From: a virus
Lineage: Duplodnaviria > Caudoviricetes
Length of the DNA: 59,362 bases
Reading direction: 5' to 3' (one strand)
IMG/VR virus record: IMGVR_UViG_3300030106_002463
Coordinates: 1 to 59,362 of that record
Below the pieces are notes generated by a model. The model was not told where the DNA came from. It saw only the letters and a program-made list of their open reading frames with translations, and ran no database searches. Position numbers and translations under genes: made by a program. Shown piece by piece: positions 4,370-50,465 of this stretch. Numbering within the stretch: position 1 is the stretch's first letter; every line of letters begins with the position of its first letter.

Positions 4370-4370
4370 A

Positions 4371-26760: not shown

Positions 26761-26941
26761 CAAGGGATCTTTAGCTAAGTTATACCAAGCTAAGATATGC
26801 CTGACTAACGCGGAAGGGTTTCTCGCCTCCGAGGAGGTGGAGCAGGCTTTAGGGGAGAGCCTGTATTACGAGGTCCGAAAGGAATTGCAGAACCTCATGA
26901 AAGGGATCGACGTAAGCTTAAGGATTGCAGAGAAACGGTAG
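26726..26941 (+). CDS. Hypothetical protein
   Basis: Continues the operon; ends at the convergent tRNA 3' end. Confidence 0.5.
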   Translation: MTVEMLKVRTSDKGSLAKLYQAKICLTNAEGFLASEEVEQALGESLYYEVRKELQNLMKGIDVSLRIAEKR

Positions 26942-27012
26942 GCTCGCCGGGACTCGAACCCGGAACCACCCGCTTATAAGACGGGCACTCTAACCAGTTG
27001 AGCTACGAGCCC
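26939..27012 (-). tRNA. tRNA-Ile (anticodon TAT, reads AUA)
   Basis: Reverse complement GGGCTCGTAGCTCAACTGGTTAGAGTG-CCCGT-CTTATAA-GCGGG-TGGTTCCGGGTTCGAGTCCCGGCGAGCCTA folds as a cloverleaf; followed by CCG rather than CCA. Confidence 0.93.
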
Positions 27013-28199: not shown

Positions 28200-28586
28200 C
28201 TAGAAGTCGATGTCGCCAAAGCTTTCGTCGCTCGTAGGCGAAGTATCGGGGGCGCTCGGCGCTTCCTTCGAAGGCGCAGGCCGAGAGGTGGACCCTCCTC
28301 CTCCGGTGCCACGGTTGGAAGAACGCCATGAGTTGTCCTCCAAGGTCATCGAGAAGTACGGCTGACCAGTCTCGTCGTCGAGTCGCTTCCAGACAGCGAC
28401 GTTAATGTAAGTCTCCTTACGCTCGCTGAACTCGGAGGCAAGGTTCTTAAGCCACTGTGCTGCGTCCCTGTTCTTCTCATCGGAACGCTGACCAGTCCAA
28501 CCCCCAACCTTGATCGCGCCCCGAAGGTCGGGCTGCTTGTCGTGGGACTTATCGTTCTTGCGAATGTTACCGTGTACCTTAGCCAT
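28200..28586 (-). CDS. Putative single-stranded DNA-binding protein
   Basis: KQPDLRG and VAVWK motifs, G/P-rich linker and acidic C-terminal tip DIDF; adjacent to the recombinase. Confidence 0.7.
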   Translation of the reverse strand: MAKVHGNIRKNDKSHDKQPDLRGAIKVGGWTGQRSDEKNRDAAQWLKNLASEFSERKETYINVAVWKRLDDETGQPYFSMTLEDNSWRSSNRGTGGGGSTSRPAPSKEAPSAPDTSPTSDESFGDIDF

Positions 28587-29265
28587 GAATCTTCTCCTCG
28601 ATTCTCTTAAGTGCGCTTCCGCGCTTTTTGAAAATGTTGGCAACGAAAAGCGCCGCCTCGGAATCCTCTTCCTTTAGTTCATCAACTACACCCTTATTGT
28701 CGGAGTAGTATGTCTTGAGTTCCTTGAAGGTCGTTGCGGAAGTGAAGAGGGCCAGCAAGAGATTCGCTTTCGGATTTGCGTAAGTCCTGTAGTGAAGCTC
28801 AACGAGGGTGTAGATCTCTTCGTCTGCTTCTTTCGTGAATCTCTTGTTGCTCGTTGCGAAAGACTTGCTCTCAAGGATCCCATCGTCGTAGAGATATCTC
28901 CCGACTCCGAACTGCACGGCAGCACGCTTCAGCGCATCACTGTACATCCCCTTCTCACCTTCGAATGTGGACTGAGTACCCACGTCAGACTTGTGTACCC
29001 ATCCCCATCCGTTGAATGAAACGCTTAGCTTGCAGACGCATCGAGTCTCAAGGTCAATATATTCAGTAGTCCACCTACCGATACCAAAGACCTCATCGAG
29101 TCTATCCATAACGTCCCTTGCATCTAGATACAGAAGGGCGGAAGACTTGTTCCCGTTAAAGTTAGAGGCTCTCCACTTAATTTGATTGGGAGAGAACGGA
29201 GCCTTCAGTTGCTTCTCTAAGATTTCAAAGGTCGCGTCGTCAGACTCTTCAGTTTTCGCGGTCAT
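28579..29265 (-). CDS. Rad52/Sak-family ssDNA annealing recombinase
   Basis: LKAPF...IKWR...YLDARDVMDRLDEVFG...KGMYSDALKRAAVQFGVGRYLY. Confidence 0.9.
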   Translation of the reverse strand: MTAKTEESDDATFEILEKQLKAPFSPNQIKWRASNFNGNKSSALLYLDARDVMDRLDEVFGIGRWTTEYIDLETRCVCKLSVSFNGWGWVHKSDVGTQSTFEGEKGMYSDALKRAAVQFGVGRYLYDDGILESKSFATSNKRFTKEADEEIYTLVELHYRTYANPKANLLLALFTSATTFKELKTYYSDNKGVVDELKEEDSEAALFVANIFKKRGSALKRIEEKIHG

Positions 29266-30127
29266 TCAGGAACCCCTTATGAATGTTACAAATATCGTTA
29301 AATGGGCAATAGCTTTTGCATCTGCGATAGCTATCAAATGTTTTGTCGATAACTGACCAGATCTGATCTTCGCCACTCAACTTATCGAAATAGGAGTTAG
29401 CTTTAGTCTTAGTCTGGAAGAGTTTCTTTTCTTCAGAGTTCATGTTGTAGACAGAGTAGACAGTTCCTCCGGGCCAACGTCCCTCATGCGAGCAGGCAGG
29501 GAGGTCATCATCCGGCAGGCTCGCAGCATCCTGCAACGCTTTGATCCGGTCACGGATGAACTGCTCCCTCTCCTCGTAGGGCCACAGAGGGATCTTGATC
29601 GTTACGCCTGGGGTCTTCGGGTAGTTGGTCATCTTCTCGGCCATAGAAATCTTCCAGTCCCGTAGGAATGCGTAGATCTGTAGCCCTTCGACTTCCCTAT
29701 CCGTACAAGTCTCGATGAGCCAAGCGTAGATGTTTAGCTGCTGCTCAAACTTAGTGGTGTCCTTGATGGCAAATACAGTAGTCATCTTATAGTCACCAAT
29801 GGTAACCTTGTTACCAGAGACAACCTGAACATCCATCGCCCCAGAGATTGTTACCCCATCGACCTCGGCGAACAGCCGCTCTTCTGCTATCTCTCCCTCA
29901 GGGGAGTTCTTCTCCATGAGGCTATGGAAGATTGTGCTGACAAACTTCCACGGATTCTCATACGGATCATCAACTATCAGATCGGAATGTCTTTCGTTGA
30001 AATGAACAACTCGGACCTCATCGATCAGTTGAGTGGCGGAGTAATCTGCCTTGCCTCGGGAGTATTCGTCGTTTGAACAGAAAGCAATAAACGACGCCGG
30101 GGCGTTGTGGTTATTCACAATTTTCAT
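29249..30127 (-). CDS. PD-(D/E)XK exonuclease (recombination partner)
   Basis: YSAT, E.RL, ISGAMD...DYK, QLNIY and C-terminal C..YC....C. Confidence 0.8.
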   Translation of the reverse strand: MKIVNNHNAPASFIAFCSNDEYSRGKADYSATQLIDEVRVVHFNERHSDLIVDDPYENPWKFVSTIFHSLMEKNSPEGEIAEERLFAEVDGVTISGAMDVQVVSGNKVTIGDYKMTTVFAIKDTTKFEQQLNIYAWLIETCTDREVEGLQIYAFLRDWKISMAEKMTNYPKTPGVTIKIPLWPYEEREQFIRDRIKALQDAASLPDDDLPACSHEGRWPGGTVYSVYNMNSEEKKLFQTKTKANSYFDKLSGEDQIWSVIDKTFDSYRRCKSYCPFNDICNIHKGFLNDREN

Positions 30128-30149
30128 TGGTTCCCTTTCCAATGGCGCA

Positions 30150-30177
30150 ATCATAAATCGGATCTTGGATATGTCAA
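30150..30177 (-). promoter_or_regulatory. Sigma70-type promoter of the leftward recombination operon
   Basis: Minus strand TTGACA-16 nt-TATGAT; overlaps the start of the divergent RusA gene. Confidence 0.55.
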
Positions 30178-33741: not shown

Positions 33742-33922
33742 TTTACATTCTCCTTTCTTGAGTTCTGGAGTCCCCGCCCCCCGTCACGGGGGCGGCATCT
33801 CCTGAAGGCAGGGCCTTGCGCTACATCGCCCTAACTGCTTGTCGTGACGGACTCACAGGACTGGCGCAGCCGGTATGACTACCTGCACAGTGGTTGACAG
33901 TAGTTGCACATATACTAGACGG

Positions 33923-34006
33923 TGTCGGGTGCGGGGGTCGAACCCGCATGACCTAACGGTCGGGAGATTTTAAGTCTCCTGTGTATACCAATTCCACCAA
34001 CCCGAC
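33923..34006 (-). tRNA. tRNA-Leu (anticodon TAA, reads UUA)
   Basis: Reverse complement GTCGGGTTGGTGGAATTGGTATACACA-GGAGA-CTTAAAA-TCTCC, long variable arm, GCGGGTTCGACCCCCGC-ACCCGACA. Confidence 0.93.
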
Positions 34007-37452: not shown

Positions 37453-38814
37453 TTAGTTTGCCTCTACCCGGATGGATCGACCGAAGTCACGGGGCGTAGC
37501 CCACCAGCCACCACGTCGCTGGGGAACCTCGACCCAAAGCACCGGCACACCCGGATCATTCGGGCATCGGAAGAACTCCATGTCAGAGATAACGATAATC
37601 CCGTTGACCTCAAGGTTCTCTTCGACGTACCGGAGAGCCATGTCGATGTCAGTCCCACCGGCAGCCCGCCGCCCCACCTGTGCAGGGAACTCGACCCCCT
37701 GCTCGTAGGAATCGCACGATACGATCCGGTGGTCGAAGACTACGACGTGAGCCATCGAAGGCTGAGCCACGTCAACGATTGACTTGGTTTCCTCAAGTGC
37801 GAGATCGAACATCGCCATGTCCATCGACCCGGAGGAGTCCACGAGGATCGCAATCTCCTCGGACTCCGGGATAACCGAAGGCATGTGAATGCCCATCGAT
37901 GCGTACCGCTTGTTGGGCTTCGTCCAACTCAAGTACCCATCGAATCCGGTCATCGCTTGCTCCACAAAGTCAGCAAGCTCAGCCCGCCAGTCTACGCGAG
38001 ACTTGGCAGCGATATCTCGGACGTGATTCTCGATAGATTCGGGAAGCTTCCCGCTGAGAGAAGCCGATGCCAGCGCGTTTTCCTGACGGATCGTATCCTC
38101 GAATTCAGCATCGCTGATTTCCTCAGGAGTCAACTCGCCGGGATCGACAACCTCGCCCCACTCGCTGATATCCGGCACCTCGTAGTCCTCGATGCCAGAG
38201 ACCTGTTCGCCTCGGTTCAGCCCCTCGTCCTTTCCGATAGGCTGTTCGTCAGAATCCTCCTCGTCTTCAGCATTCTCTCCTTCGGGCTCGCTCGGCTGGT
38301 CGGGCTTGTCCACACCGATGGACCCACCTCCCGGCGGTCCTTCGGGCTCGCCGTCCTCGCAAGGCTTACCCCCCGGCCCTTCGGGCTCCTCCACCTGAAT
38401 GTCCTTCAGGTAACGATAGATCTGCTCCATCGTCATCTCTGCAAACTGCGGATCGCAGAGTGCGTTATCGAGGATCGGGACGTTCGCCTTCTTAAGAAGG
38501 TTGTTCGCCTCCTGATCGGTAGCCTGCTGAACCAACTCCTTATCCTCAAGCTTGATGGATCGGGAGAAGTGCTTCAGGAAGACGTGCGCCCACTCGTGAA
38601 GCACAACGAACTCGACTTGGAAAGCATCGAGAGCGTTGATGAAGTGGGGGTTAACCCACATCGTGTTGCCATCAGTAGCAGCAGTCTTCACGTTGGTAGT
38701 CACGACGACACGCATCTTCGACACGTCGCCTTCGATCATCGGGAAGTCCAGCATTGCATGGATCTTCCCTCGATCCACCTTATCCATAATGTCATCGACC
38801 TTGATCGAATCCAT
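37453..38814 (-). CDS. HExxH metallopeptidase plus vWA domain protein (DUF2201-like)
   Basis: TAATDG, VLHEWAH, acidic linker, MIDAS DSSGSM, GGTD, ISD; start refined to MDSIK after GAAAGGGG. Confidence 0.88.
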   Translation of the reverse strand: MDSIKVDDIMDKVDRGKIHAMLDFPMIEGDVSKMRVVVTTNVKTAATDGNTMWVNPHFINALDAFQVEFVVLHEWAHVFLKHFSRSIKLEDKELVQQATDQEANNLLKKANVPILDNALCDPQFAEMTMEQIYRYLKDIQVEEPEGPGGKPCEDGEPEGPPGGGSIGVDKPDQPSEPEGENAEDEEDSDEQPIGKDEGLNRGEQVSGIEDYEVPDISEWGEVVDPGELTPEEISDAEFEDTIRQENALASASLSGKLPESIENHVRDIAAKSRVDWRAELADFVEQAMTGFDGYLSWTKPNKRYASMGIHMPSVIPESEEIAILVDSSGSMDMAMFDLALEETKSIVDVAQPSMAHVVVFDHRIVSCDSYEQGVEFPAQVGRRAAGGTDIDMALRYVEENLEVNGIIVISDMEFFRCPNDPGVPVLWVEVPQRRGGWWATPRDFGRSIRVEAN

Positions 38815-38827
38815 TTCGTTCCCCTTT

Positions 38828-39706
38828 CTATTGTTCCAATCCGAACATCTCAAAGTTATTGGCAATCTCGTCAGCCTTATCGGCAATCACATTGCGAAGC
38901 GGCTCGGAGTCCTTCAACTGCCGCTCGTCGAACTGCACCAGATTGTCGAGGATTTCTTTCTGGATGAGAGAAATCATCTCGTCGTCAGTGAAGTTGACCT
39001 TCGAGAGAAGCTCAGCATTTTCCTTTACGTTCGTGACGAGGGTCTTCCTGAATGCGGAGTCGCGTCCCGCTTCGGGATCGTAGTCCCGGAGGGACTTGCT
39101 CATCTTCAGAAGAGACTTGTAAGTAGGCACCAGAGAATCTGTCACCGACTTCTTCAGAGACTTCTCAAGGCTCTCGCGAACGTCATCCACAAACTCGTTG
39201 TCGAAGACATCGAGTAGATCGTCAGGATTCTCAACTGCCCGAGGCTTGATGAGTTCGAAGCTGAAAGATGCTCGGAACTCTTCCTTACTCGGAATCTCAC
39301 CTTCCTTGAAGAGATTCCCGGAGAAGTCCTTCACCTCCTCCAGCATCGAATCGAAACCGAACATAATGGTATCGATCCCAGCCTCAACCGAACGCTCCGC
39401 CATTCGGAAGTCGTTGCAGTATTCCTTAATGACGGGAGCCTTGCCGATACCCTCACCCTTCGCAGCTCGCTCGAAAGGAACAAGCCGCTGCCTGTGGTAC
39501 TTCGCCCACTTGTTTCGCTCCTGCGTGAAGGGGCGGAGATACTTCGCCGGAACAATCCGTCGGGTGAAAGTACCCACGTCAGCCGTTGCGTTATACGCAC
39601 TCGCAACAGCATCGACTCCTCGTTCGTCTTTTGTGCCACCCGTAGGCGCACTCGTTCGATAACCCGCGATCATCAAACCGCGAGACTTGTTTTCGTCAAT
39701 CATCAT
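38828..39706 (-). CDS. Helical early protein (DUF3150-like) associated with the AAA/vWA module
   Basis: Start refined to MMIDENK behind a promoter cassette; P...E....FSF motif. Confidence 0.55.
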   Translation of the reverse strand: MMIDENKSRGLMIAGYRTSAPTGGTKDERGVDAVASAYNATADVGTFTRRIVPAKYLRPFTQERNKWAKYHRQRLVPFERAAKGEGIGKAPVIKEYCNDFRMAERSVEAGIDTIMFGFDSMLEEVKDFSGNLFKEGEIPSKEEFRASFSFELIKPRAVENPDDLLDVFDNEFVDDVRESLEKSLKKSVTDSLVPTYKSLLKMSKSLRDYDPEAGRDSAFRKTLVTNVKENAELLSKVNFTDDEMISLIQKEILDNLVQFDERQLKDSEPLRNVIADKADEIANNFEMFGLEQ

Positions 39707-39763
39707 GAACCCCTTTCGTTCAATGAGGGTATGATAGCATACCCTTGACCCCTTGTCAACCCC
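39707..39763 (-). promoter_or_regulatory. Early promoter cassette A
   Basis: TTGACA-17-TATCAT with extended TG; GAAAGGGG RBS. Confidence 0.9.
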
Positions 39764-40848
39764 TAGTAGATAAGATGCGTGTTCGTCCTCATCCACTGGA
39801 GGAAACTGTCAGTCTTACCGATGCGAGACTCGACAGCATCGTTAGCGAAAACCGCCCGACAAACCGTCGGGAGTTTATCCACCCACCCGAGGATGTTCTT
39901 CACGTTCGAAGAGTCACCCTTCTCGACAAGCTTCGTGATAGTGGCGAGAGCCACGTCCGCATCAGACTCACCGGGAGCGGGAACATTCATCCCGTTCAGA
40001 ATCCCAGCGATATCAGGAAGGCGAGCGAAGATCCCGAGGAAGGCGACCATGCGGGCCGCATCCTCCTCGCCCAGCTCACCCTTTGCGAATCGGTAGACTC
40101 GCTTGTCATCACCGACCAGACCAATCTCATCTGCGCTTCGAGCATCCTTCCGGGTTCCCGTTACCTCGCAGCCCGAAGACTTGAGGATGTCAGCGAACGC
40201 CGTGATGGATCGCCCCGTAGCCTGCTGCCCGTTCATCCGACCATCGAACTTCTCGATAAGATCCTTATGGAAATTGCAGGCTGCGATGACACGTCGATCG
40301 ACTCCGTTGCGTCGAGCCCACTTCGTCCAGTCCTCGACCGAAGGAAGCCACTCGACACTATTGAACCGATCATCGAGAGCCCGAGGGAGTTTCCTCACAC
40401 CACACCCGTCCTCGATACGGTTAGACGTGGCAACGATATCCCACCCATCGGGAAGCACCTGATCCCGGATGCGACGTTCAGCAGTCAACTGATAGATCGC
40501 AGGGAAGTGAACCTGCTGGGCGTTGCCCAACTCCTCGATAACAAGGATCCCATGAGGCTCGTCCACCGGAAACCAATCCGGTCGGAGCCACGTCGTCACC
40601 TTGTTTTCGATATCGAGATAGGGCATCCCCTTGATCTCGGTAGGATCTTCCATCGAGAGACGGAAGTCTCGGTATCCCATCTCCTCGGGAGAGATCCCAT
40701 GATCCTTCCGGCGGGCCTCGAAAATCTCGCCACCCGGAGCGAGAGACATGGACTTGTTACACCCCGGCGGCCCCTCGACCTTTGCGGCCCGTCCCGCCCG
40801 GAGGACATCAAGTACCTGTTGCGTAGCCTCTTCAGTCAATCCCATCAC
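39763..40848 (-). CDS. MoxR-like AAA+ ATPase
   Basis: GPPGCNKS (Walker A variant), DPTEIKGMP, LVIEE, IVATSNR, ALDDRF. Confidence 0.88.
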   Translation of the reverse strand: MMGLTEEATQQVLDVLRAGRAAKVEGPPGCNKSMSLAPGGEIFEARRKDHGISPEEMGYRDFRLSMEDPTEIKGMPYLDIENKVTTWLRPDWFPVDEPHGILVIEELGNAQQVHFPAIYQLTAERRIRDQVLPDGWDIVATSNRIEDGCGVRKLPRALDDRFNSVEWLPSVEDWTKWARRNGVDRRVIAACNFHKDLIEKFDGRMNGQQATGRSITAFADILKSSGCEVTGTRKDARSADEIGLVGDDKRVYRFAKGELGEEDAARMVAFLGIFARLPDIAGILNGMNVPAPGESDADVALATITKLVEKGDSSNVKNILGWVDKLPTVCRAVFANDAVESRIGKTDSFLQWMRTNTHLIY

Positions 40849-40907
40849 AAACCCCTTTCGTTTGATGAGTCACAATCCTAGCACAAGGTTAACCCCTTGT
40901 CAACCCC
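40849..40907 (-). promoter_or_regulatory. Early promoter cassette B
   Basis: TTGACA-17-TAGGAT; GAAAGGGG RBS. Confidence 0.9.
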
Positions 40908-41100
40908 TTGTGTTTAATCTTTCTGGTGTACCCCTTGCCACCCTTCTTCGTTCCATGTCGGCCACCCTGAGGGAGTTGCATTTTGCGACTCGCTCTCCGC
41001 ATAGCCTTGGCGATTTCTTCGTTATCCATCTTCGCCATATTGCATTCCTTTCGACTTCGCCCGATGCGAGCAAGTCCTTCTCTGAAGTAGTTCCTCGCAC
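40900..41100 (-). CDS. Small Arg-rich hypothetical protein
   Basis: Follows the micro-peptide trio; its stop TGA lies inside the -35 box of cassette B. Confidence 0.4.
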   Translation of the reverse strand: MRGTTSEKDLLASGEVERNAIWRRWITKKSPRLCGERVAKCNSLRVADMERRRVARGTPERLNTRG

Positions 41101-41108
41101 CTCACGAT

Positions 41109-41213
41109 CTAATTCTGGATGATGGATTCAATCAAGTACCAGAGCATCCCTGCCTGAATCACGATCGTGATGATTCCCCATACCATGAGTGCGTCAGCTA
41201 TCCACTTACGCAT
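41109..41213 (-). CDS. 34-aa single-pass membrane peptide
   Basis: MRKWIADALMVWGIITIVIQAGMLWYLIESIIQN*. Confidence 0.6.
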   Translation of the reverse strand: MRKWIADALMVWGIITIVIQAGMLWYLIESIIQN

Positions 41214-41295
41214 TGAAGTACCAGAGAACAATCGTTTCGATAAAGATTGCGATGGCTCCCACCACCATTATTGCTTCACTCATTAGGGGGTTCAT
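41206..41295 (-). CDS. 29-aa single-pass membrane peptide
   Basis: MNPLMSEAIMVVGAIAIFIETIVLWYFNA*; TAATG coupling and GGGAGG Shine-Dalgarno. Confidence 0.6.
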   Translation of the reverse strand: MNPLMSEAIMVVGAIAIFIETIVLWYFNA

Positions 41296-41375
41296 TACAT
41301 GAACCTCCCCAGCATCAAGTGAATCGAGAGCAGCGTGATATACGCAAACCCCATACACATAAGAAAATCAATCAT
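41295..41375 (-). CDS. 26-aa hydrophobic peptide
   Basis: MIDFLMCMGFAYITLLSIHLMLGRFM*; first ORF behind cassette C. Confidence 0.55.
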   Translation of the reverse strand: MIDFLMCMGFAYITLLSIHLMLGRFM

Positions 41376-41382
41376 CCCTCTC

Positions 41383-41437
41383 ACCCCCTTCGTTCGATAG
41401 GACAATGGTAGCATACCGCTACCCCTTTGTCAACCCC
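41383..41437 (-). promoter_or_regulatory. Early promoter cassette C
   Basis: TTGACA-17-TACCAT; leader ATCGAACGAAGGGGG. Confidence 0.9.
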
Positions 41438-41634
41438 TCTTCAATCGTTCCGACAATCCGCTTGGCGATATCCTCACCGAAGTAAATGGTAGACACGTTG
41501 CCATCAGACCCGATCAATTCGATTCCAAACCTTTCGACACTTCCGTCATTGAAGACTCGGATTTCACCACTCTCATCACGAGACTTGAAGTCCGTCCCGT
41601 TTTCGAAGTAAACGATCTCGCAATCAGTCTGCAC
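41419..41634 (-). CDS. Acidic hypothetical early protein
   Basis: AAAGGGG RBS; its stop lies inside cassette C. Confidence 0.65.
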   Translation of the reverse strand: MQTDCEIVYFENGTDFKSRDESGEIRVFNDGSVERFGIELIGSDGNVSTIYFGEDIAKRIVGTIEEGLTKG

Positions 41635-41955
41635 TTAGTTCCCCTTTCCCTCATTGAACCATGCTTCCAGCGAGTACGGTTCCCACTCCTCGACTTCCCC
41701 CATGAGGGAGACAATCTCGGACGCATCGACCTCGATGAAATTGTCCGCGTGATTTTTTCCTCGACACTGTACAAAGAAGTCGTCAGTCACATATCGCCCC
41801 GTGCGCTCGTCAACTACACCGACCTCTACTTTGTCGGGATTGACGTTGCTATCGACGATGGTGATGGTGACGCCGTTGTCGAACGTGGCATACACCTTTG
41901 TGAAAACTTGACGCCCCTCGCATAGCTCGCTGCGCTCAATTCTTACGCTACTCAC
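41635..41955 (-). CDS. Acidic hypothetical early protein
   Basis: First ORF behind cassette D. Confidence 0.75.
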   Translation of the reverse strand: MSSVRIERSELCEGRQVFTKVYATFDNGVTITIVDSNVNPDKVEVGVVDERTGRYVTDDFFVQCRGKNHADNFIEVDASEIVSLMGEVEEWEPYSLEAWFNEGKGN

Positions 41956-41957
41956 TT

Positions 41958-42016
41958 GAACCCCTTTCGTTCAGTATGGGGAGAGCATAGCACATGCTCC
42001 CCCCATTGTCAACCCC
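41958..42016 (-). promoter_or_regulatory. Early promoter cassette D
   Basis: TTGACA-17-TATGCT; 11-bp stem GGGGGGAGCAT/ATGCTCTCCCC. Confidence 0.9.
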
Positions 42017-42685
42017 CTATCGATTCGTCCACCGCTGGCGGCACACGGGGCCGATACCCAATTCGACAGACTTCTTTTCAGTAAGCTCTCGACCGCAGGC
42101 GGAGCAGGCTCCCGAAGCTTTTCCGTGGTCACGCAGGGTGCCATCGGGGTCAGCGTTCAGAGCGCGTAGCATTTCCACCACACCCTCCGGGCAGTCCTTA
42201 CTCGGGGTGAATTCCCCATCCCGGTCGATCTTCCCGAAATACTTCCGATCCGGCGAGTAGAAATCCTTCACGCCGTTATCGAGGAAGACGCATCCCGGAT
42301 TCTTGGATCGGTCGCCAGCCCTCCGGGCTTTAACTTCGATCCCGTCCACCATGAAGCGAAGCTTCGGGTACTTGATAGACTCCGCAGCCTTATCGAAGAG
42401 TGCGATGACTCCCGGCACGCTTTCGCCACTCACCTTCGGCCCTTCCATGATGGCCTCGTTCGTGTCGAAGAAGTCCCGCAGGAATGCGTCCGCAGTCTCC
42501 CGATTCAGTTGCTCCATCTTCTTTCGGATGATCCACTCCGAGACGTAGGTTTTACCTCCCTCCTCTCGGATCATCTTCTTAGGGATGAAGACTCGTTCCC
42601 GTCGTCCACCATCCTGCACATCGAATGCGATTGCTTTGGCCGACTCCCATACCGGGAGATCCGTTGCCAGAAAATATGCGTTCAT
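42017..42685 (-). CDS. Early protein with C-terminal DUF6011-like Zn finger
   Basis: CSACGRELT...SVELGIGPVC; start refined to MNAYF behind cassette E. Confidence 0.8.
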   Translation of the reverse strand: MNAYFLATDLPVWESAKAIAFDVQDGGRRERVFIPKKMIREEGGKTYVSEWIIRKKMEQLNRETADAFLRDFFDTNEAIMEGPKVSGESVPGVIALFDKAAESIKYPKLRFMVDGIEVKARRAGDRSKNPGCVFLDNGVKDFYSPDRKYFGKIDRDGEFTPSKDCPEGVVEMLRALNADPDGTLRDHGKASGACSACGRELTEKKSVELGIGPVCRQRWTNR

Positions 42686-42688
42686 CGT

Positions 42689-42748
42689 AAACCCCTTTCG
42701 TTTGTTCGATGAGACAAGCTTAGCACAAGCTTGCCACCTTGTCAACCC
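42689..42748 (-). promoter_or_regulatory. Early promoter cassette E
   Basis: TTGACA-17-TAAGCT; GAAAGGGG RBS. Confidence 0.9.
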
Positions 42749-42753
42749 TGTGG

Positions 42754-43053
42754 CTAAAGCCACTTACCCGCGTCGTCAACCCATCCCCAAGAGACGTAGT
42801 AGTCCCCGTCGAAAGCCACGGCGATCTTCGCGCGTGCCCCTCTGCTTCCATCTACGTTCACGAATCTATCGAGGAAAGCGTTGGCGGCAGCCTCCACGTT
42901 GGCCGCAGGGTCCAGCCCATACTCCCAAGATACCTTGATACTCTGTGCGGGGATGTCCTCCCCCCACTTCTCGCGACTCGCTACGAGATGCTGCCCCCGG
43001 TAGTTCGTAGGTCCGTAGAACTTGACCTTGATACCCGCTCGCGATTCCATCAT
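42754..43053 (-). CDS. Hypothetical early protein
   Basis: IKVKFYGPTNYRG motif; start refined behind cassette F. Confidence 0.75.
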   Translation of the reverse strand: MMESRAGIKVKFYGPTNYRGQHLVASREKWGEDIPAQSIKVSWEYGLDPAANVEAAANAFLDRFVNVDGSRGARAKIAVAFDGDYYVSWGWVDDAGKWL

Positions 43054-43055
43054 AT

Positions 43056-43112
43056 GAACCCCTTTCGTTCGATGAGACAAGCTTAGCACATTGTGTGCCC
43101 CTTGTCAACCCC
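43056..43112 (-). promoter_or_regulatory. Early promoter cassette F
   Basis: TTGACA-17-TAAGCT; GAAAGGGG RBS. Confidence 0.9.
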
Positions 43113-43337
43113 TTAGAGATACGCGGTGAAATCACCCTGATCGCGCACCTCTACGCTGTAACCCGTCTTCCCGTTTTCATCCCGCAGGATGGAAATCTCA
43201 TATCCTTCGGGGAGTTCCGTGGTTTTCACCACACGGTAAGTCCAGTCGGGATCGTCCCAGTTACACTGGCGTGCGATTTCGCAGGCTTCCCCGTAGGGAA
43301 GAGACGTGGCTCGATTGCTCTCGATGCTGTTATTCAT
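43113..43337 (-). CDS. Hypothetical early protein
   Basis: Exactly fills the interval between cassettes G and F. Confidence 0.75.
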   Translation of the reverse strand: MNNSIESNRATSLPYGEACEIARQCNWDDPDWTYRVVKTTELPEGYEISILRDENGKTGYSVEVRDQGDFTAYL

Positions 43338-43340
43338 CGT

Positions 43341-43394
43341 GAACCCCTTTCGTTTGATGAGGATACGTTAGCACATCCTCACCCCCTTGTCAAC
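43341..43394 (-). promoter_or_regulatory. Early promoter cassette G
   Basis: TTGACA-17-TAACGT; stem TGAGGATGTG/CGTATCCTCA. Confidence 0.9.
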
Positions 43395-43604
43395 TGGGGG
43401 CGAACCCCCTCGGTAGTCTCCCCGGCGGTGGACTCGTCCCATTCGCGTGGGTATTTCACCACGTTACTAACGAGTCCCCCAGAGGAGGGTCTGCGTGCTT
43501 TTCACCACGGTGGGTACACGTCATGCGTGCTTTCCACCACGATGGGCTGGCATCGTCAGGATGTGGGTACCACCCCACACCGATCCCCGTGAGGGGATTT
43601 CGCC
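43395..43604 (-). ncRNA. Candidate structured non-coding RNA (about 210 nt)
   Basis: No ORF with an RBS; three related CGTG-GTG(G/A)AA..-CACG hairpins plus flanking GC-rich hairpins. Confidence 0.45.
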
Positions 43605-43790
43605 TTATCGGTTCCGATTCTTCCGGGCGTGCCGTCGCTTGCTCAGCGCGTACTTCGCCGCTCGTCGCGCGAGGGTTCCCCCTTCGGGCTTCACCTTCAT
43701 GCTTGCTCGCGGGATCCCGTAGGCTCGTCCCGGCGGGCACACCTCTACCTCTACCATTCCCGCGTCGATCATTTCCTGAACTGTCATCAT
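43605..43790 (-). CDS. Small basic early protein
   Basis: MMTVQEMIDAG... behind cassette H. Confidence 0.7.
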   Translation of the reverse strand: MMTVQEMIDAGMVEVEVCPPGRAYGIPRASMKVKPEGGTLARRAAKYALSKRRHARKNRNR

Positions 43791-43851
43791 GAACCCCTTT
43801 CGTTCGTCGATGGTGGGGAGCTTAGCACATCGAAGCCCCCTTGTCAACCCC
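43791..43851 (-). promoter_or_regulatory. Early promoter cassette H
   Basis: TTGACA-17-TAAGCT; GAAAGGGG RBS. Confidence 0.9.
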
Positions 43852-43855
43852 TAGT

Positions 43856-44068
43856 CTACGGTCGGACTCGGCACCCGTGTTCGTCGTACTTCTGGACGAA
43901 GCACTTTCGCCCCAGCTTCGCGAAGGCATCAACAATCTGCTCCGCCTGCTCGTGGGTGTAGTTCACCCCAAGATCAGCCCAGCCTCCCCGAAGGGTGTCC
44001 TGACCTTCGTGGCCTCCCACCTCAGTGAAATCCACGCCCTCAGCCCAAACCTTGATTCGCAGTCTCAT
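43856..44068 (-). CDS. Hypothetical early protein
   Basis: MRLRIKVWAEG... behind cassette I. Confidence 0.7.
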   Translation of the reverse strand: MRLRIKVWAEGVDFTEVGGHEGQDTLRGGWADLGVNYTHEQAEQIVDAFAKLGRKCFVQKYDEHGCRVRP

Positions 44069-44072
44069 GATA

Positions 44073-44128
44073 GATCCCTTTCGTTCGATGGGGATACAGT
44101 AGCACACTGTCGCCCCTTTGTCAACCCC
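44073..44128 (-). promoter_or_regulatory. Early promoter cassette I
   Basis: TTGACA-17-TACTGT; GAAAGGGA RBS. Confidence 0.9.
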
Positions 44129-44286
44129 TACCTGACGAGCGTGGCTTCCTGCCCACAGTCCCGACACTTCCGCACCTCGGGCTCGTTCCGGAGTCCACCC
44201 CGGCACCAGAGCATTGCGTTGTAATTCCCACACTTCGGGCAGGACGGCTCGTCATTGTTTTCGTAAGAGCAAGTCATCGTTTCCAA
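44128..44286 (-). CDS. Small Zn-ribbon early protein (CPKC...CRDC)
   Basis: TTG or ATG start behind cassette J; stop abuts cassette I. Confidence 0.7.
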   Translation of the reverse strand: METMTCSYENNDEPSCPKCGNYNAMLWCRGGLRNEPEVRKCRDCGQEATLVR

Positions 44287-44290
44287 GACA

Positions 44291-44346
44291 GATCCCTTTC
44301 GTTTGATGGGGAGAAGATAGCACATCCTCGCCCCTTTGTCAACCCC
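44291..44346 (-). promoter_or_regulatory. Early promoter cassette J
   Basis: TTGACA-17-TATCTT; GAAAGGGA RBS. Confidence 0.9.
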
Positions 44347-44348
44347 GT

Positions 44349-44432
44349 GGGCTTTCGCCCTCGTTCGGGGAGCCTTTGGCTGCCCCTTCGCCCGTAGCCC
44401 CGTCACGTCTCGCGTGGTGCGCTTCGTTCGAT
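44349..44432 (-). ncRNA. Candidate small RNA 1 (cassette K cargo)
   Basis: Promoter without RBS or ORF; hairpins CACG-CGAGA-CGTG, GGGGCAGCC-AAA-GGCTCCCC and GGGC-GAAA-GCCC. Confidence 0.55.
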
Positions 44433-44471
44433 GGGGGCATTGTAGCCTATCGGTCGCCCCTTGTCAACCCC
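44423..44471 (-). promoter_or_regulatory. Early promoter cassette K
   Basis: TTGACA-17-TACAAT; leader ATCGAACGAAG lacking the GGGG RBS. Confidence 0.88.
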
Positions 44472-44545
44472 TGATCCAGCGGGGTGCCGGTGGCTCCCCT
44501 ACGAACGTCGCTTCGTCACGTCTCGCGTGGTGTGTGTCGCTCGAT
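44472..44545 (-). ncRNA. Candidate small RNA 2 (cassette L cargo), paralogue of small RNA 1
   Basis: Shares the exact 19-mer CACCACGCGAGACGTGACG and a GGGG.AGCC-N3-GGC.CCCCG hairpin. Confidence 0.55.
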
Positions 44546-44580
44546 GGGGGGAATGATAGCACACAGTTGCCACTTGTCAA
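44537..44580 (-). promoter_or_regulatory. Early promoter cassette L (outermost)
   Basis: TTGACA-16-TATCAT with extended TG; leader ATCGAGCGA. Confidence 0.85.
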
Positions 44581-44638
44581 GGGGGTGGAAACCCCCCAAG
44601 TTATTGTTTCATTATACGTCAGGAAGGAACTCGCAACT

Positions 44639-45148
44639 ATGCCTCGTAACCCCACGGAAAAGCAAAGGAAATTCGCTCAATCGGTAGCGGAAGGTGACAG
44701 CTACTCGGAAGCGTATCGAAAAGCCTACGATGCCGAGGGGAGTTCCCCACAGACGGTGCGTGTTAACGCCCACAGAGTCGCCCATAACGCTAACGTGTCA
44801 CCTATGATAGACGAGCTAAAGGCTCGGAATGAAAGGGGATTACAGCGCAACCTAGGCTCTAGACGCCGCTGGATACTTGAAAGGCTACTAGAGGAGGCCG
44901 AGAGCCTAGAATCTACTCCAGCTTCTCGCGTTAAGTCCTTGGAATTGCTAGCGAAAATGGCTGGCATGTTCGATTCTGAGAAAGAGCGTGCAGAGAAGAG
45001 GGAGCACGCGACCGAATCGGAGCTAATTGCTGAGCTAAATCAACGACTTACGCAGATTATCGAGGAACCGCTTGAAGTTTCAGCCGTAAGTGGTGGGACT
45101 CCTGACGAACCGTCAGATGAGAATGAGGTAGACCCCACCCCCGTGTGA
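44639..45148 (+). CDS. terS: Terminase small subunit
   Basis: TEKQRKFA...SEAYRKAY HTH and RVKSLELLAK..GMF; AAGGA Shine-Dalgarno. Confidence 0.85.
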   Translation: MPRNPTEKQRKFAQSVAEGDSYSEAYRKAYDAEGSSPQTVRVNAHRVAHNANVSPMIDELKARNERGLQRNLGSRRRWILERLLEEAESLESTPASRVKSLELLAKMAGMFDSEKERAEKREHATESELIAELNQRLTQIIEEPLEVSAVSGGTPDEPSDENEVDPTPV

Positions 45149-45326: not shown

Positions 45327-45355
45327 TTGACAGAGGAATCCTACCCCTATAGAAT
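45327..45355 (+). promoter_or_regulatory. Strong sigma70-type promoter with upstream A/T tracts and no downstream sense ORF
   Basis: TTGACA-17-TAGAAT. Confidence 0.7.
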
Positions 45356-46446: not shown

Positions 46447-47970
46447 GTGGCTATCGAAGGATTAAGTCCGGACCTCATATCAGCTCTACCTAATCTTGGG
46501 CACCTCGGCGACGAGGACAAGAGGGAAGTGCTGGACATAATTGATCGACTGCAAGAACTTCAGTCGTATAAGAATGCAAGGCTAAGCTTTATGGACTTCG
46601 TTCATATGGTTTGGCCTTCTTTCATTGAGGGGTCGCACCACAAGATCATGGGGGAAGCCTTTGAGGATGTGGTTCTCAAAGATGACAAACGTCTTATCAT
46701 TAACATGGCTCCTCGCCATACAAAGTCGGAGTTCGCTTCTTTTCTACTCCCTGCTTGGTTCCTCGGAAACTTTCCGGAAAAGAAAGTAATTCAGACAGCA
46801 CATACCGCAGAACTGGCGGTGGGGTTCGGGCGAAAGGTAAGAAACCTTTTCGAAACAGACGAGTTCAAGAAGGTTTTCCCTGGAGTAGCACTCAGATCAG
46901 ACTCTAAGGCGGCAGGCCGCTGGGCAACAAATCACGGGGGTGAATACTTCGCAATCGGCGTGGGTGGCGCGGTAACAGGTAAGGGTGCGGATCTTCTTAT
47001 TATCGACGATCCCCACTCAGAGCAGGAAGCGCAATTAGGGGACGCCACTGTCTTCGACAAAGTTTACGAGTGGTACACGTCAGGCCCCCGCCAGCGGTTG
47101 CAGCCGGGAGGACGGATCATTCAGGTAGCAACTCGGTGGTCTCAACGGGACTTGACGGGGCAGCTACTCAAGAACTCGGCAGAAAGAGAAGGGACGGATC
47201 AATGGAAGGTCATTGAGTTCCCGGCGATCCTTCCTTCTGGTAATCCGCTTTGGCCTGAGTTCTGGTCGATCGATGAACTGACGAAGGTTAAATCTGAGCT
47301 TCCAGCTTCTAAATGGTCTGCTCAGTACCAACAGGATCCTACAGCCGACGAGGCTGCGATCATCAAAAGAGAGTGGTGGAGAGTCTGGGAGTATCAAGAA
47401 CCTCCCCCGTGCGACTTCATCATACAGTCTTGGGATACAGCGTTTCTCAAGACAGAAAGAGCCGACTTCTCAGCCTGTACGACATGGGGCGTTTTCTACA
47501 GCGACGATACTGAAGATGGTAGGATAAGGCCGAATCTCATCCTTTTGAACGCCTTTCAGGACCGAATGGAGTTCCCTGAGCTAAAGAGGAGGGCGTTTGA
47601 CGAGTATCAAGATTGGCAACCAGATGCCTGCATCGTCGAAGCGAAGGCAGCAGGATCTCCTCTGATTTTTGAATTGAGACAGATGGGTGTTCCTGTAAGT
47701 GAATACACCCCGTCTAGAGGTAGAGACAAGATTGCTCGCGTGAACGCAGTCGCAGATCTGTTTGCTTCTGGAACAGTGTGGGCACCGAGCAAGAGATTCG
47801 CAGAAGAAGTGATAGAGCAGTTCGCTGGATTCCCCGGCGCGTCTGCTCATGATGACTTGGTGGACTCGTCCACTCAGGCATTACTTAGATTCAGGCAAGG
47901 CGGCTTCGTCCCGATCGATAGCGACGAAGAGCTTGTATACGAACCAAAGCGGGCGTACTCGCCCTACTAG
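46447..47970 (+). CDS. terL: Terminase large subunit
   Basis: NMAPRHTKS (Walker A), TGKGADLLIIDDP (Walker B), QSWDTA, IVEAKAAG and HDDLVDS nuclease motifs. Confidence 0.97.
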   Translation: MAIEGLSPDLISALPNLGHLGDEDKREVLDIIDRLQELQSYKNARLSFMDFVHMVWPSFIEGSHHKIMGEAFEDVVLKDDKRLIINMAPRHTKSEFASFLLPAWFLGNFPEKKVIQTAHTAELAVGFGRKVRNLFETDEFKKVFPGVALRSDSKAAGRWATNHGGEYFAIGVGGAVTGKGADLLIIDDPHSEQEAQLGDATVFDKVYEWYTSGPRQRLQPGGRIIQVATRWSQRDLTGQLLKNSAEREGTDQWKVIEFPAILPSGNPLWPEFWSIDELTKVKSELPASKWSAQYQQDPTADEAAIIKREWWRVWEYQEPPPCDFIIQSWDTAFLKTERADFSACTTWGVFYSDDTEDGRIRPNLILLNAFQDRMEFPELKRRAFDEYQDWQPDACIVEAKAAGSPLIFELRQMGVPVSEYTPSRGRDKIARVNAVADLFASGTVWAPSKRFAEEVIEQFAGFPGASAHDDLVDSSTQALLRFRQGGFVPIDSDEELVYEPKRAYSPY

Positions 47971-47978
47971 GTAGCTAA

Positions 47979-50465
47979 ATGGCAATAGAGCCTGCATTCC
48001 CGAATATGCCCAACCCTCTTGCTGGCGACATGGAAGATGTCGTCGAAGATGACGGCGTATCCATTGCTATAGAGAATCCCGATTCCGTTATTGTCGAGAC
48101 GGAAGACGGTGGGATGCTGATTGATTTCAACCCCGATGCCTTGACGGGGTTAGATGTGGGGTTTGATGCAAATCTCGCAGAGCATATGGATGACAGAGAG
48201 CTTGGCAGACTAGCCTCTGAGCTTGTCGGTTTAGCCAGATCTGATCTTGATTCGAGGAAAGACTGGGAAGAGACCTATATCGAAGGTCTCAAGCAGCTTG
48301 GTATGAAGATCGAGGATCGCTCTACTCCCTGGCCGGGGGCTTGCGGTGTGCAACATCCGGTTCTTGCTGAAGCGGTTGTCAGATTTCAGGCGCAGACAAT
48401 CACTGAGATTTTCCCGAACGATGGCCCCGTAAAGGTCAAGATGTTTGGGAAGATGACTGATGATAAGGAAAAGCAGGCATACAGAGTCAAGGAGTACATG
48501 AACTACTTGATTACTGAGGAGATGCCGGAGTATCGATCCGAAACGGAAAAGATGCTCTTTAACCTTGCGCTAGCTGGCTCCGCCTTCCGCAAGGTCTACT
48601 GGGATCCGGCGATGAATCGGCCCTGCTCGATGTTTATTCCCGCAGAGGATCTTCTTGTTGCGTATGGCTCTCCTTCGCTTGAGATGGCAGAGCGCGTTAC
48701 GCATATAATGAAGAAAACCTCTAACGAGGTCAGGAAGCTTCAGGTGTCTGGTTTCTACAGGGACACGGAGCTTTCTTCGGGATCTGTGGAGAACTCTGAC
48801 ATACAGGAAGAGTACGACGACTTAACCGGGGATTCGCCTTCTTATGAGGCAGGAGATCGGCACCTCCTCTACGAGATGCACCTCGACTGGGATCTCGAAG
48901 GCTTTGAGGATATGCAGGACGGGAACCCTACAGGTGTCGCCCTCCCCTACGTCATCACGATCGACGCGACGAATTCTGAAGTTCTTTCGATCCGAAGAAA
49001 TTGGATCGAGGGCGACCCGAACAAGATCAGAAGGAACCACTTCGTCCATTACGAGTACCTTCCGGGCATGGGGTTCTATGGCTTTGGCCTGATTCATCTT
49101 ATCGGAGGCATCGCCAAGTCGGCCACTTCCTTGCTCCGCCAGCTTGTTGACTCCGGAACGCTCGCGAATCTTCCCGGCGGGCTCAAGGCTAGAGGTCTTA
49201 GAATCAAGGGAGATGACTCCCCGATTATGCCGGGAGAGTTTAGGGACGTAGATGTACCGGGTGGCGCGATCAGGGACAACATCACGTTCCTTCCGTACAA
49301 GGAACCTTCGAATGTTCTGTATCAGCTTCTTGGAAATATCGTAGAAGAGGGTAGAAGATTCGCCTCCATCACTGACATGAAGATCTCCGATATGAACCAG
49401 CAGGCTCCTGTAGGAACCACGCTGGCGATTATCGAAAGATCCATGAAGGTGATGAATGCAATTCAGGCCAGAATCCATTATTCGATGAAGAAAGAGTTCA
49501 AGCTTCTTTCTGGCATCGTTCGTGACTATATGCCCGAGGATTATGAGTGGGAGGTTGATGGCGGCGATGTGATGAAGACCGACGACTTCAACGGTCGCAT
49601 GGACGTAATCCCCGTCAGTGATCCCAATTCCTCTACGATGGCACAGAGAATTATGCAGTATCAGGCGGCGTTGCAGTTAGCTTCTACTGCTCCGCAGCTT
49701 TACAACCTTTCCGAACTCCATCGACAGATGCTTGATGTTCTTGGGATTCAGGATGCAGAAGACATTGTTCCGACTGATGAGGATGTAAAGCCGATTGATC
49801 CCGTCTCTGAGAACATGAACATCCTCAAGACTGATCCTGTAAGAGCGTTTGCTTGGCAGGATCATGATGCCCATATTCAGGTTCACCTTGACGCTGCTCA
49901 AGATCCGAAGATGCTGGCAGTCGTCAAGAATTCTCCCAAGGCTAAACAGATTGAAGCGTCCCTTGCTGCCCATGTGATTGAACATCTTGGCTTTAAGTAT
50001 CGAAGAGAAATCGAAAAGGAACTTGGCGTGGAACTTCCGCCCTATGGCGAGCCTCTCCCGAGAGATGTTGAGGTTAGAATTTCTTCGCTCGTTGCTGAAG
50101 CTGGCAGCCGCCTCCTTGGTCGTGATGTGGCAGAAATGCAGTTGAAGCAGCAGATGGCAAAGATGCAGGATCCTGTCGTTCAGCAGCAGAATAAGAAGCT
50201 TGAGATTGAAGAGACCAGAGTTCAGGCGAAGATGCAGAGCGATGCTGCTCGGATCGCAGCAGATCTTAAGAAGGCGGCACTCAGGGCTGATGTCGAAAGG
50301 GAGAAGATGGAGTCTGCCGAAATGCTTAAGGGCATGGAGATCGGCGCCGACACCGTGATCGAAAATCGAAAGATCGATGTCCAAGAAGATGAAATTGAAG
50401 CAGAAAAGCTTTTAGAGGGAATAAAGCTTGGAAGCCAAATAACGAAAGAGTCTAGGGAGGACTGA
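47979..50465 (+). CDS. Portal protein
   Basis: Follows TerL; HPVLAEAVVRFQA, GFYGFGL, LRQLVDSGTLANLP. Confidence 0.9.
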   Translation: MAIEPAFPNMPNPLAGDMEDVVEDDGVSIAIENPDSVIVETEDGGMLIDFNPDALTGLDVGFDANLAEHMDDRELGRLASELVGLARSDLDSRKDWEETYIEGLKQLGMKIEDRSTPWPGACGVQHPVLAEAVVRFQAQTITEIFPNDGPVKVKMFGKMTDDKEKQAYRVKEYMNYLITEEMPEYRSETEKMLFNLALAGSAFRKVYWDPAMNRPCSMFIPAEDLLVAYGSPSLEMAERVTHIMKKTSNEVRKLQVSGFYRDTELSSGSVENSDIQEEYDDLTGDSPSYEAGDRHLLYEMHLDWDLEGFEDMQDGNPTGVALPYVITIDATNSEVLSIRRNWIEGDPNKIRRNHFVHYEYLPGMGFYGFGLIHLIGGIAKSATSLLRQLVDSGTLANLPGGLKARGLRIKGDDSPIMPGEFRDVDVPGGAIRDNITFLPYKEPSNVLYQLLGNIVEEGRRFASITDMKISDMNQQAPVGTTLAIIERSMKVMNAIQARIHYSMKKEFKLLSGIVRDYMPEDYEWEVDGGDVMKTDDFNGRMDVIPVSDPNSSTMAQRIMQYQAALQLASTAPQLYNLSELHRQMLDVLGIQDAEDIVPTDEDVKPIDPVSENMNILKTDPVRAFAWQDHDAHIQVHLDAAQDPKMLAVVKNSPKAKQIEASLAAHVIEHLGFKYRREIEKELGVELPPYGEPLPRDVEVRISSLVAEAGSRLLGRDVAEMQLKQQMAKMQDPVVQQQNKKLEIEETRVQAKMQSDAARIAADLKKAALRADVEREKMESAEMLKGMEIGADTVIENRKIDVQEDEIEAEKLLEGIKLGSQITKESRED

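Follow-up and report, generated by a model that had tools for sequence, protein, structure and literature searches.

Why would a phage place a nearly identical promoter and leader in front of each of a row of small genes and RNAs, and what becomes of such a row in related genomes? The question is raised by a locus on the minus strand (39707-44580) of the IMG/VR virus record IMGVR_UViG_3300030106_002463, which was analysed as a whole (59,362 bases, linear, rated 100% complete; hereafter the window). Twelve promoter-leader elements, named P1 to P12 from the outermost to the innermost, follow one another there, each with its own cargo, making twelve units in 4.9 kb. The answer favoured here is that the locus is most probably a mobile regulatory cassette array of the PeSL (promoter/stem-loop) type, standing at the start of the early region, read by the host sigma-70 RNA polymerase and shuffled through short homologies.

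Anatomy of the promoter-leader elements

The elements and their cargo, from the outer end of the array inwards, are as follows (SD, Shine-Dalgarno sequence; ORF, open reading frame).

44546..44580, minus: P1, the outermost element; TTGACA, 16-nt spacer, TATCAT; without SD leader
44468..44545, minus: A, cargo of P1; non-coding RNA of about 78 nt, paralog of B, carrying the hairpin motif CACGCGAGACGTG
44433..44467, minus: P2; TTGACA, 17-nt spacer ending in GGC, TACAAT
44343..44432, minus: B, cargo of P2; non-coding RNA of about 90 nt, paralog of A
44278..44342, minus: P3 with leader
44128..44277, minus: Z, cargo of P3; 49-aa zinc-ribbon-like protein
44069..44124, minus: P4 with leader
43856..44068, minus: K, cargo of P4; 70-aa protein, with three strongly diverged alleles among relatives
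43791..43847, minus: P5 with leader
43605..43790, minus: Q, cargo of P5; 61-aa protein with an arginine-rich C-terminus
43541..43605, minus: hammerhead ribozyme of type II (RF02276), which begins at the Q stop codon
43394..43540, minus: structured non-coding RNA of about 150 nt between the ribozyme and P6, carrying CACGCATGACGTG
43338..43393, minus: P6 with leader
43113..43337, minus: S, cargo of P6; 74-aa ORFan
43054..43108, minus: P7 with leader
42754..43053, minus: E, cargo of P7; 99-aa protein, phrog_3199 (unknown function)
42686..42745, minus: P8 with leader
42017..42685, minus: Y, cargo of P8; 222-aa protein with a C-terminal DUF6011
41956..42012, minus: P9 with leader
41419..41955, minus: V and U, cargo of P9; two genes, of 106 aa and 71 aa
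41376..41433, minus: P10 with leader
40889..41375, minus: cargo of P10; three putative tiny hydrophobic ORFs and a 49-aa basic protein (40889-41038)
40849..40903, minus: P11 with leader
39763..40848, minus: W, cargo of P11; 361-aa ATPase, phrog_1297
39707..39759, minus: P12 with leader, the innermost element
38828..39706, minus: X, the first gene behind P12; 292 aa, no family

A preliminary description of this DNA had reported twelve minus-strand elements at this locus, and pattern counts against shuffled sequence confirmed them. The pattern TTGACA-N17-TAnnnT matched the window 12 times, compared with a mean of 0.36 and a maximum of 3 in 100 shuffles; 11 of these fall within 39731-44467 on the minus strand, while the remaining one, at 45327 on the plus strand, is unrelated. 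The twelfth array element is P1, with its -35 box at 44580 and a 16-nt spacer. All twelve carry a perfect -35 box and a TAnnnT box, and the spacer measures 17 nt in every element except P1. As had been described, a G precedes TTGACA in all but the outermost element (11/12), usually within GGGG (9/12; GGGG or GGG in 10/12), and the spacer ends in TGC in 11 elements and in GGC in P2; the TG of an extended -10 box is present in 11/12.

Behind the promoter, the leader ATC(G/A)AACGAAAGGGG was found with two mismatches or fewer at ten of the twelve elements, where 0.30 matches were expected, and one further, unrelated match lies at 20499 on the plus strand. In the same number of elements (10/12) the leader forms a purine-rich SD sequence that ends at the start codon. 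The near-constant leader claimed earlier thus stands for ten elements but not for P1 and P2, which keep only its first 10 nt or so and both precede non-coding cargo. Upstream genes were said to abut or overlap the next element, and they do: the gap from stop codon to TTGACA is 3-9 nt, and in three cases the stop lies 15 nt inside the element. The TGA noted inside the -35 box of P11, on the other hand, belongs to another frame, the likelier gene before P11 being the 49-aa ORF at 40889-41038, with its TAA stop in the P11 spacer. Scans of the whole window with the promoter and leader patterns found no array-type element elsewhere in the genome.

Beyond what the preliminary description had observed, a covarying, GC-rich stem-loop is predicted to be built into each promoter. 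Bases 9-19 of the element, counted from the T of TTGACA and lying in the spacer, are complementary to bases 25-35, with GTGCT as the loop; the 3' arm consists of the C-run behind the -10 box together with the variable bases of that box. The window and its relatives supplied 37 distinct elements, whose mean fold was -13.45 kcal/mol, against -9.97 kcal/mol for 920 chimeras of non-cognate halves, and none of 2000 permutations reached the native mean. The window elements by themselves gave the same picture, with a mean of -13.0 for the 12 native sequences and -9.55 kcal/mol for 130 chimeras (p = 5e-4). In an ungapped alignment of the 34 distinct elements that have a 17-nt spacer, 69.8% of cells were paired in the fixed register, compared with 63.6 +/- 1.4 in shuffles (0/500) and with 44-57.5% in registers slid by 1-3 columns, and changes on both sides of a pair were seen in 39 cells where 22.1 +/- 4.0 were expected (0/500 shuffles). 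The strongest stem-loop is that of P9 (-23.4 kcal/mol), and P5, P6 and P12 use another stem register.

Cassette turnover among relatives

Relatives were sought by pattern scans, and are labelled here with L for contigs from viral and metagenome collections and with X for metagenome runs. Among viral contigs, 59 stretches matched the promoter-leader pattern, with three matches in L001 and L003 only and one or two in each of the other 57; L002, which has one leader match without a promoter, was dropped as a relative. The metagenome scan returned nine stretches (L061-L069), of which L069, an unrelated AT-rich sequence, was dropped; L064 and L003 are one and the same contig. L065, L061 and L001 are 100% identical across their overlaps, and the X14 run, from a different study, supplied a relative that is 90-97% alike. 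This makes seven other lineages (six from metagenome or viral contigs and one from the X14 run), or about eight with the window, and the events seen among the seven comprise cassette loss, translocation, replacement and allele exchange. The cassette orders are:

Window: A B Z K Q S E Y [V U] [tiny ORFs] W X
L062: A Z K Q S E Y [V U]
L068: B K Q S E Y
L003: A B K Q Z R E
L065: B K Q R M E Y [44-aa gene, V2] W X
X14: Q Z S E Y, plus further changes
L063: Y [F64 U] ...
L067 (distant): small RNA, Z, Q, three other cassettes, long operon to W

The earlier proposal that cargo changes between relatives with breakpoints at the elements has held up, since the relatives have no single order in common and show element-bounded indels with hybrid elements. 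Z was found at several array positions, the S slot is taken by an unrelated 97-aa gene, R, in L003, L065 and L061, and in L063, L065 and X14 other genes stand in place of, or ahead of, the 106-aa first gene of the P9 cargo. The distant L067 (minus strand, about 3900-6200) retains the joint promoter and stem as well as the abutting stop codons; its leader is different in most elements, and at least three of its cassettes are unseen in the other lineages.

Several junctions could be placed to the nucleotide. L062 is 99.0% identical to the window across 3 kb (cargo 97-100%) and lacks exactly the 125-nt B cassette; the junction falls in a 9-nt stretch common to the P2 and P3 spacers and leaves a hybrid promoter with a 16-nt spacer. 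Identity between L003 and L065 is 99-100% for B, K, Q, the ribozyme RNA and the first part of E, yet only 77.6% for cassette R, and the high identity stops 48 nt into one element and restarts 5 nt before another. In L003, Z is inserted behind a P6/P3 hybrid, of which the first 25 nt are those of the next promoter and the rest corresponds to the window's own promoter for Z; an additional cassette, M, is found in L065. L068, in which Z is absent, carries a hybrid of a P3-type core and a P4-type leader, and its identity to the window, cassette by cassette, runs 98.8, 60.1, 88.7, 97.6, 96.9 and 87.3%. On a 6174-nt X14 contig, Z stands after the ribozyme RNA and is followed by a hybrid of the 5' part of P4 and the P6 leader, joined over 10 common nt, and then by S, while on a second X14 contig the P3 and P4 leaders are joined and Z is missing. 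These two separate contigs of one metagenome would be the scars expected if Z had left a window-like site and re-entered at P6. As a control, the approximately 3.9 kb behind the array (W, X and the DUF2201 gene) are colinear in the window and L065 at just 68-72% identity.

What do these junctions decide? With elements occupying almost all gaps between genes, indels bounded by them prove little on their own; specific evidence for recombination from element to element comes from the hybrids only. It could be argued that the elements are mere strong early promoters with a selected leader, and that the turnover arose by ordinary illegitimate recombination or through other homologies and only seems to be bounded by them. 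The filling of nearly all intergenic space by elements would favour this, as would the shortness of the exact stretches common to them (median 11 nt, maximum 24 nt; the 24-nt stretch is that of P7 and P8) and the several junctions that lie outside the elements, namely the 3' side of the V/F64 swap in L063, the 5' side of the P10-cassette difference and, in X14, a 339-nt insertion exactly at the V start codon and one side of a 149-nt replacement. This explanation is nevertheless unlikely, given at least four hybrids with two parents and a crossover inside common stretches (P2/P3 in L062, P6/P3 in L003, P3/P4 in L068, P4/P6 in X14), the single diverged cassette in the nearly identical background of L003 and L065, and the movement of Z in X14 together with the 5' half of its downstream element. 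The preliminary description called the array integron-like, and a site-specific system can be imagined in which the covarying hairpin is a folded attC-like site for a dedicated recombinase. Head-to-tail, mostly single-gene cassettes, sites conserved in structure and variable in sequence, and gain, loss and reordering of cargo are indeed common to both. An integron, however, would have an IntI-type recombinase and a single Pc promoter, whereas the complete 59,362-base record gave 0 matches to the tyrosine recombinase family PF00589 (14/14 control genomes matched), each cassette has its own promoter, the genome is that of a lytic-type phage, and the crossover points differ, lying in the spacer (L062), at the -10 edge (L003) or in the leader (L068, X14), a spread that a fixed cleavage site would not yield. 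The integron comparison was therefore abandoned as very improbable.

It seems scarcely credible, too, that the variant orders are assembly artefacts, even though the elements are repeated and every relative is a short-read metagenome contig. Misassembly is unlikely because the junction homology is only 9-25 nt, less than typical assembly words (31 letters in the Logan index), because the L065 order is 100% identical in the separately filed L065, L061 and L001, and because the order seen in the window around A-B-Z-K is spanned by contigs from runs X8 and X9; jumps in identity, moreover, are impossible to obtain by misjoining one genome. Further points weigh against a shuffled PeSL-type array. 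The AT-rich tract of PeSLs upstream of the -35 box is missing, with GGGG or GGG in its place, a terminator scan found no canonical terminator between cassettes on the minus strand, and no T-run follows the stem-loops. The folds of P1, P11 and some L067 elements are weak (-5 to -9 kcal/mol), and the elements in the fold tests are related copies, hence not independent samples. A test for concerted evolution had a mixed outcome, the ortholog being clearly the closest sequence in 7 of 12 comparisons (B, Y, V, S/R slot, A, W) and a paralog as close or closer in 5 (Z, K, Q, E). Promoters of the hairpin type are used by N4-like virion RNA polymerases. This identity was considered for the elements and rejected, since neither TTGACA nor the extended -10 varies and the protein of 3256 aa among the virion genes has LPD38 and NUDIX domains and no polymerase; no phage RNA polymerase was found among the window proteins scanned.

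Proposed mode of action and known systems

If the array works as a PeSL-type system, each element of about 55 nt would do three jobs. It would serve as a strong host sigma-70 promoter (perfect -35 box, 17-nt spacer, extended -10), it would form a stem-loop with its 5' arm in the spacer and its 3' arm over the -10 box and the bases that follow, and it would supply a ribosome site through a constant 5' untranslated region of about 20 nt. Host RNA polymerase would then fire at each unit, presumably early in infection. Because the predicted +1, at the usual distance from the -10 box, falls after the 3' arm, the stem-loop would form as RNA only in read-through from upstream, where by analogy with PeSLs it might act as an attenuator, an insulator or a stabiliser of 3' ends. 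Since the elements fill nearly every gap and have exact stretches of 11-24 nt in common, they could also act as portable homology, and recombination between them would delete, move, replace or exchange cassettes while always leaving a working promoter and leader before each gene.

The preliminary description named the phage's own Sak/Rad52 annealase as a possible agent, and such a protein is encoded, next to an exonuclease:

28579..29265, minus: single-strand annealing protein of the Rad52/Rad22 family (Sak-like); PF04098, 66.7 bits against a cut-off of 20.3, residues 15-132
29249..30154, minus: PD-(D/E)XK exonuclease (PDDEXK_1) adjoining the annealase

The best PHROGs match of the annealase, phrog_1097, is named Erf-like. 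Together the two proteins are reasonable candidates for the shuffling agents.

The published account of PeSLs presents strong sigma-70-like promoters that hold a stem-loop, frequently a G-run followed by a C-run, placed in the stretch that separates the -35 box from the -10 box or over the -10 box, and includes in the motif an AT-rich tract upstream of the -35 box, an upstream stop codon, and a downstream SD sequence and start codon (PMC2839356). The same report found that the motifs of RB49 and phi1 worked as promoters and their stem-loops as terminators, and that recombination from motif to motif explained indels and yielded mini-circles (PMC2839356). PeSLs have been published for the T4-type phages RB49/phi1, T4/PST and KVP40/nt-1 (PMC2839356; PMC4122927). 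On that account the analogy with PeSLs drawn at the outset is well borne out: the present elements likewise combine a consensus sigma-70 promoter with a stem-loop in or over it, a stop codon at the 5' edge and an SD sequence with start codon at the 3' edge, and they likewise crowd an ORFan-rich variable region where indels and replacements at the motifs leave chimeras. A PeSL-like mode of action is proposed because every sequence feature fits except the GGGG that replaces the AT-rich upstream tract. Other differences are that the phage, at 59 kb, is not a T4-like myovirus, that its twelve elements are contiguous and their leader much more uniform, and that the cargo is partly RNA (two small RNAs, and the hammerhead with its structured RNA). 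Promoter and terminator activity and mini-circles were demonstrated for PeSLs, whereas for the present array they are proposed by analogy.

A comparable arrangement outside the T4-like phages is that of the haloarchaeal virus HGTV-1, in which a conserved motif of TATA-box and inverted repeat precedes the left-end ORFs and was proposed by its authors to serve regulation and shuffling (PMC3950731). Both have a promoter and an inverted repeat before most genes of one genome end. The promoter type of HGTV-1 is archaeal, and the passage describing its motif mentions no recombinant junctions, whereas in the relatives of the present phage they have been mapped to the nucleotide. A literature search on promoter/stem-loop shuffling cassettes surfaced no paper on a phage of the present lineage, which is not proof of absence. 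The present array is of interest in its own right for the covariation found within a sigma-70 promoter, for a leader of great uniformity, for RNA cargo that includes a ribozyme, and for junctions resolved to the nucleotide.

The PeSL design would accordingly extend, in an unusually regular form, to an unrelated, uncultured marine phage lineage, with a catalogue of natural junctions that includes a clean deletion, the two scars of a translocation, the exchange of an allele, and replacements. This supports the view that linkers of promoter plus hairpin are a general phage way to shuffle accessory early genes while keeping them expressed. With twelve units in so small a space and an annealase and exonuclease on board, the locus could be a compact natural model, and the spacer/-10 covariation that keeps the stem, together with the ribozyme and small-RNA cargo, bears on the design of promoters and insulators and on phage RNA biology.

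As to what is shuffled, no function could be assigned to the cargo with Pfam, PHROGs, tblastn against phages or a protein atlas, which returned only 'hypothetical' or 'unknown function', DUF6011 and weak zinc-ribbon matches. That these are host-takeover or anti-defence genes is a guess from their position. They make a short candidate list for early host-interaction functions. The host-takeover module of Bacillus phage SPO1 also holds many small early genes of unknown function with strong host-type promoters and ribosome sites at one genome end, and has been described as an expression device rather than as a recombination-shuffled array.

RNA cargo and genomic setting

Besides A and B, the cargo includes RNA behind Q. 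The hammerhead ribozyme scored 45.9 bits with RF02276, against an Rfam gathering threshold of 37; its core (CUGACGA, CGAAA, AUC) is intact, with both stem I and stem III closed, and it scored above threshold in all seven of the relatives' contigs that span the ribozyme site. The predicted cut, after AUC, lies about 24 nt beyond the Q stop codon. Cleavage there would sever all read-through transcripts, making the ribozyme a natural insulator. Ribozymes of the hammerhead class have been reported before from between the genes of phages (PMC3088659). The structured RNA that follows had no match to an Rfam family, and compensatory changes preserve its fold in 6 relatives (9 of the 63 predicted pairs are changed on both sides); an 11-pair long-range stem is part of the conserved fold.

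The hairpin CACGC-NN-GACGTG occurs exactly three times in the window (0.62 expected), once in each of the following RNAs:

44517-44529, minus: copy in A
44404-44416, minus: copy in B
43517-43529, minus: copy in the RNA behind the ribozyme

It may be a shared protein-binding hairpin. In the distant relative L067 it is present in the single small-RNA cassette, and a scan of genome contigs for the small-RNA hairpin in CRISPR repeats gave only single matches among the matches listed. The arginine/lysine-rich end of Q recalls arginine-rich RNA-binding peptides, and Q directly precedes the ribozyme and the hairpin-rich RNA. One may speculate that the protein is linked to these adjoining RNAs. Another motif, GTGGTGRAAA, has four copies in the window, all on the minus strand (0.16 expected):

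43499-43508, minus: in the RNA behind the ribozyme
43531-43540, minus: in the same RNA
43223-43232, minus: in gene S
42172-42181, minus: in gene Y

All of these parts could be joined into a self-contained system of cassette mobilisation and regulation, in which hairpins, annealase and exonuclease would excise and reinsert cassettes as circles and the RNA cargo would form a control circuit; the array would then be more than a mere passive hot spot for recombination. Cassettes would leave as circles and re-enter at other elements, as the several contexts of Z and the donor and reinsertion scars of X14 might suggest; the hammerhead would cut every read-through transcript after Q; and Q would bind CACGC-NN-GACGTG in A, B and the RNA behind the ribozyme, and so set how far read-through extends past the stem-loops, a circuit that can be likened to the N/nut timer. 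So complete a scheme is doubtful. The simpler PeSL-type array, in which circular intermediates are conceivable by analogy, is preferred.

The phage that carries the array belongs to an uncultured marine lineage that is not T4-like. Its large terminase is 56.7% identical to that of phage DSL-LC04, 54.7% to that of 023Pt_psg01, and 53.0% and 51.6% to those of the Pelagibacter phages HTVC027P and HTVC023P; the phage is therefore not considered T4-like. None of three cultured phages with the nearest terminases contained the array (0, 5 and 1 generic promoter matches), and blastn of the array region against GenBank phages gave no match. A search for kin in genome contigs gave a single 33% match, in an archaeal metagenome-assembled genome, and in viral contigs a profile search recovered just L001 and a 29% relative (L200) with no more promoter matches than chance would give.

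Structural and packaging genes, including one for a virion protein with a transglycosylase domain, are encoded on the plus strand of the window, while most of the early and replication genes are on the minus strand and run down from 44580. Features outside the array are:

44581-44597: GC-rich hairpin immediately beyond P1, separating the array from the divergent small-terminase gene; the scan rates it terminator-like for the plus strand
44639-45148, plus: small terminase
45327-45355, plus: a different consensus promoter, TTGACA-17-TAGAAT, facing the packaging genes; not of the array family
46447-47970, plus: large terminase
47979-50465, plus: portal
14863-24633, plus: 3256-aa ORF among the virion genes, a 'large polyvalent protein' with LPD38 and NUDIX domains, in which a polymerase domain was not detected
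37453-38814, minus: DUF2201 metallopeptidase/VWA protein, continuing the X operon
26937-27012, minus: tRNA Ile-TAT
33921-34006, minus: tRNA Leu-TAA
34414-34490, minus: tRNA Arg-TCT

Behind the array, the ATPase W, X and the DUF2201 metallopeptidase/VWA protein make up a conserved trio (37453-40848, minus strand), and W had weak tblastn matches (about 25% identity) to ATPases of several phages, among them the Enterobacter phage EcP1, the Achromobacter phage Axy13 and the Pseudomonas phage inbricus. The TTGACA-17-TAGAAT promoter is kept in the relative L003, at 2470-2498 on the plus strand, and tRNAs are also present downstream of the array in L001 and L061.

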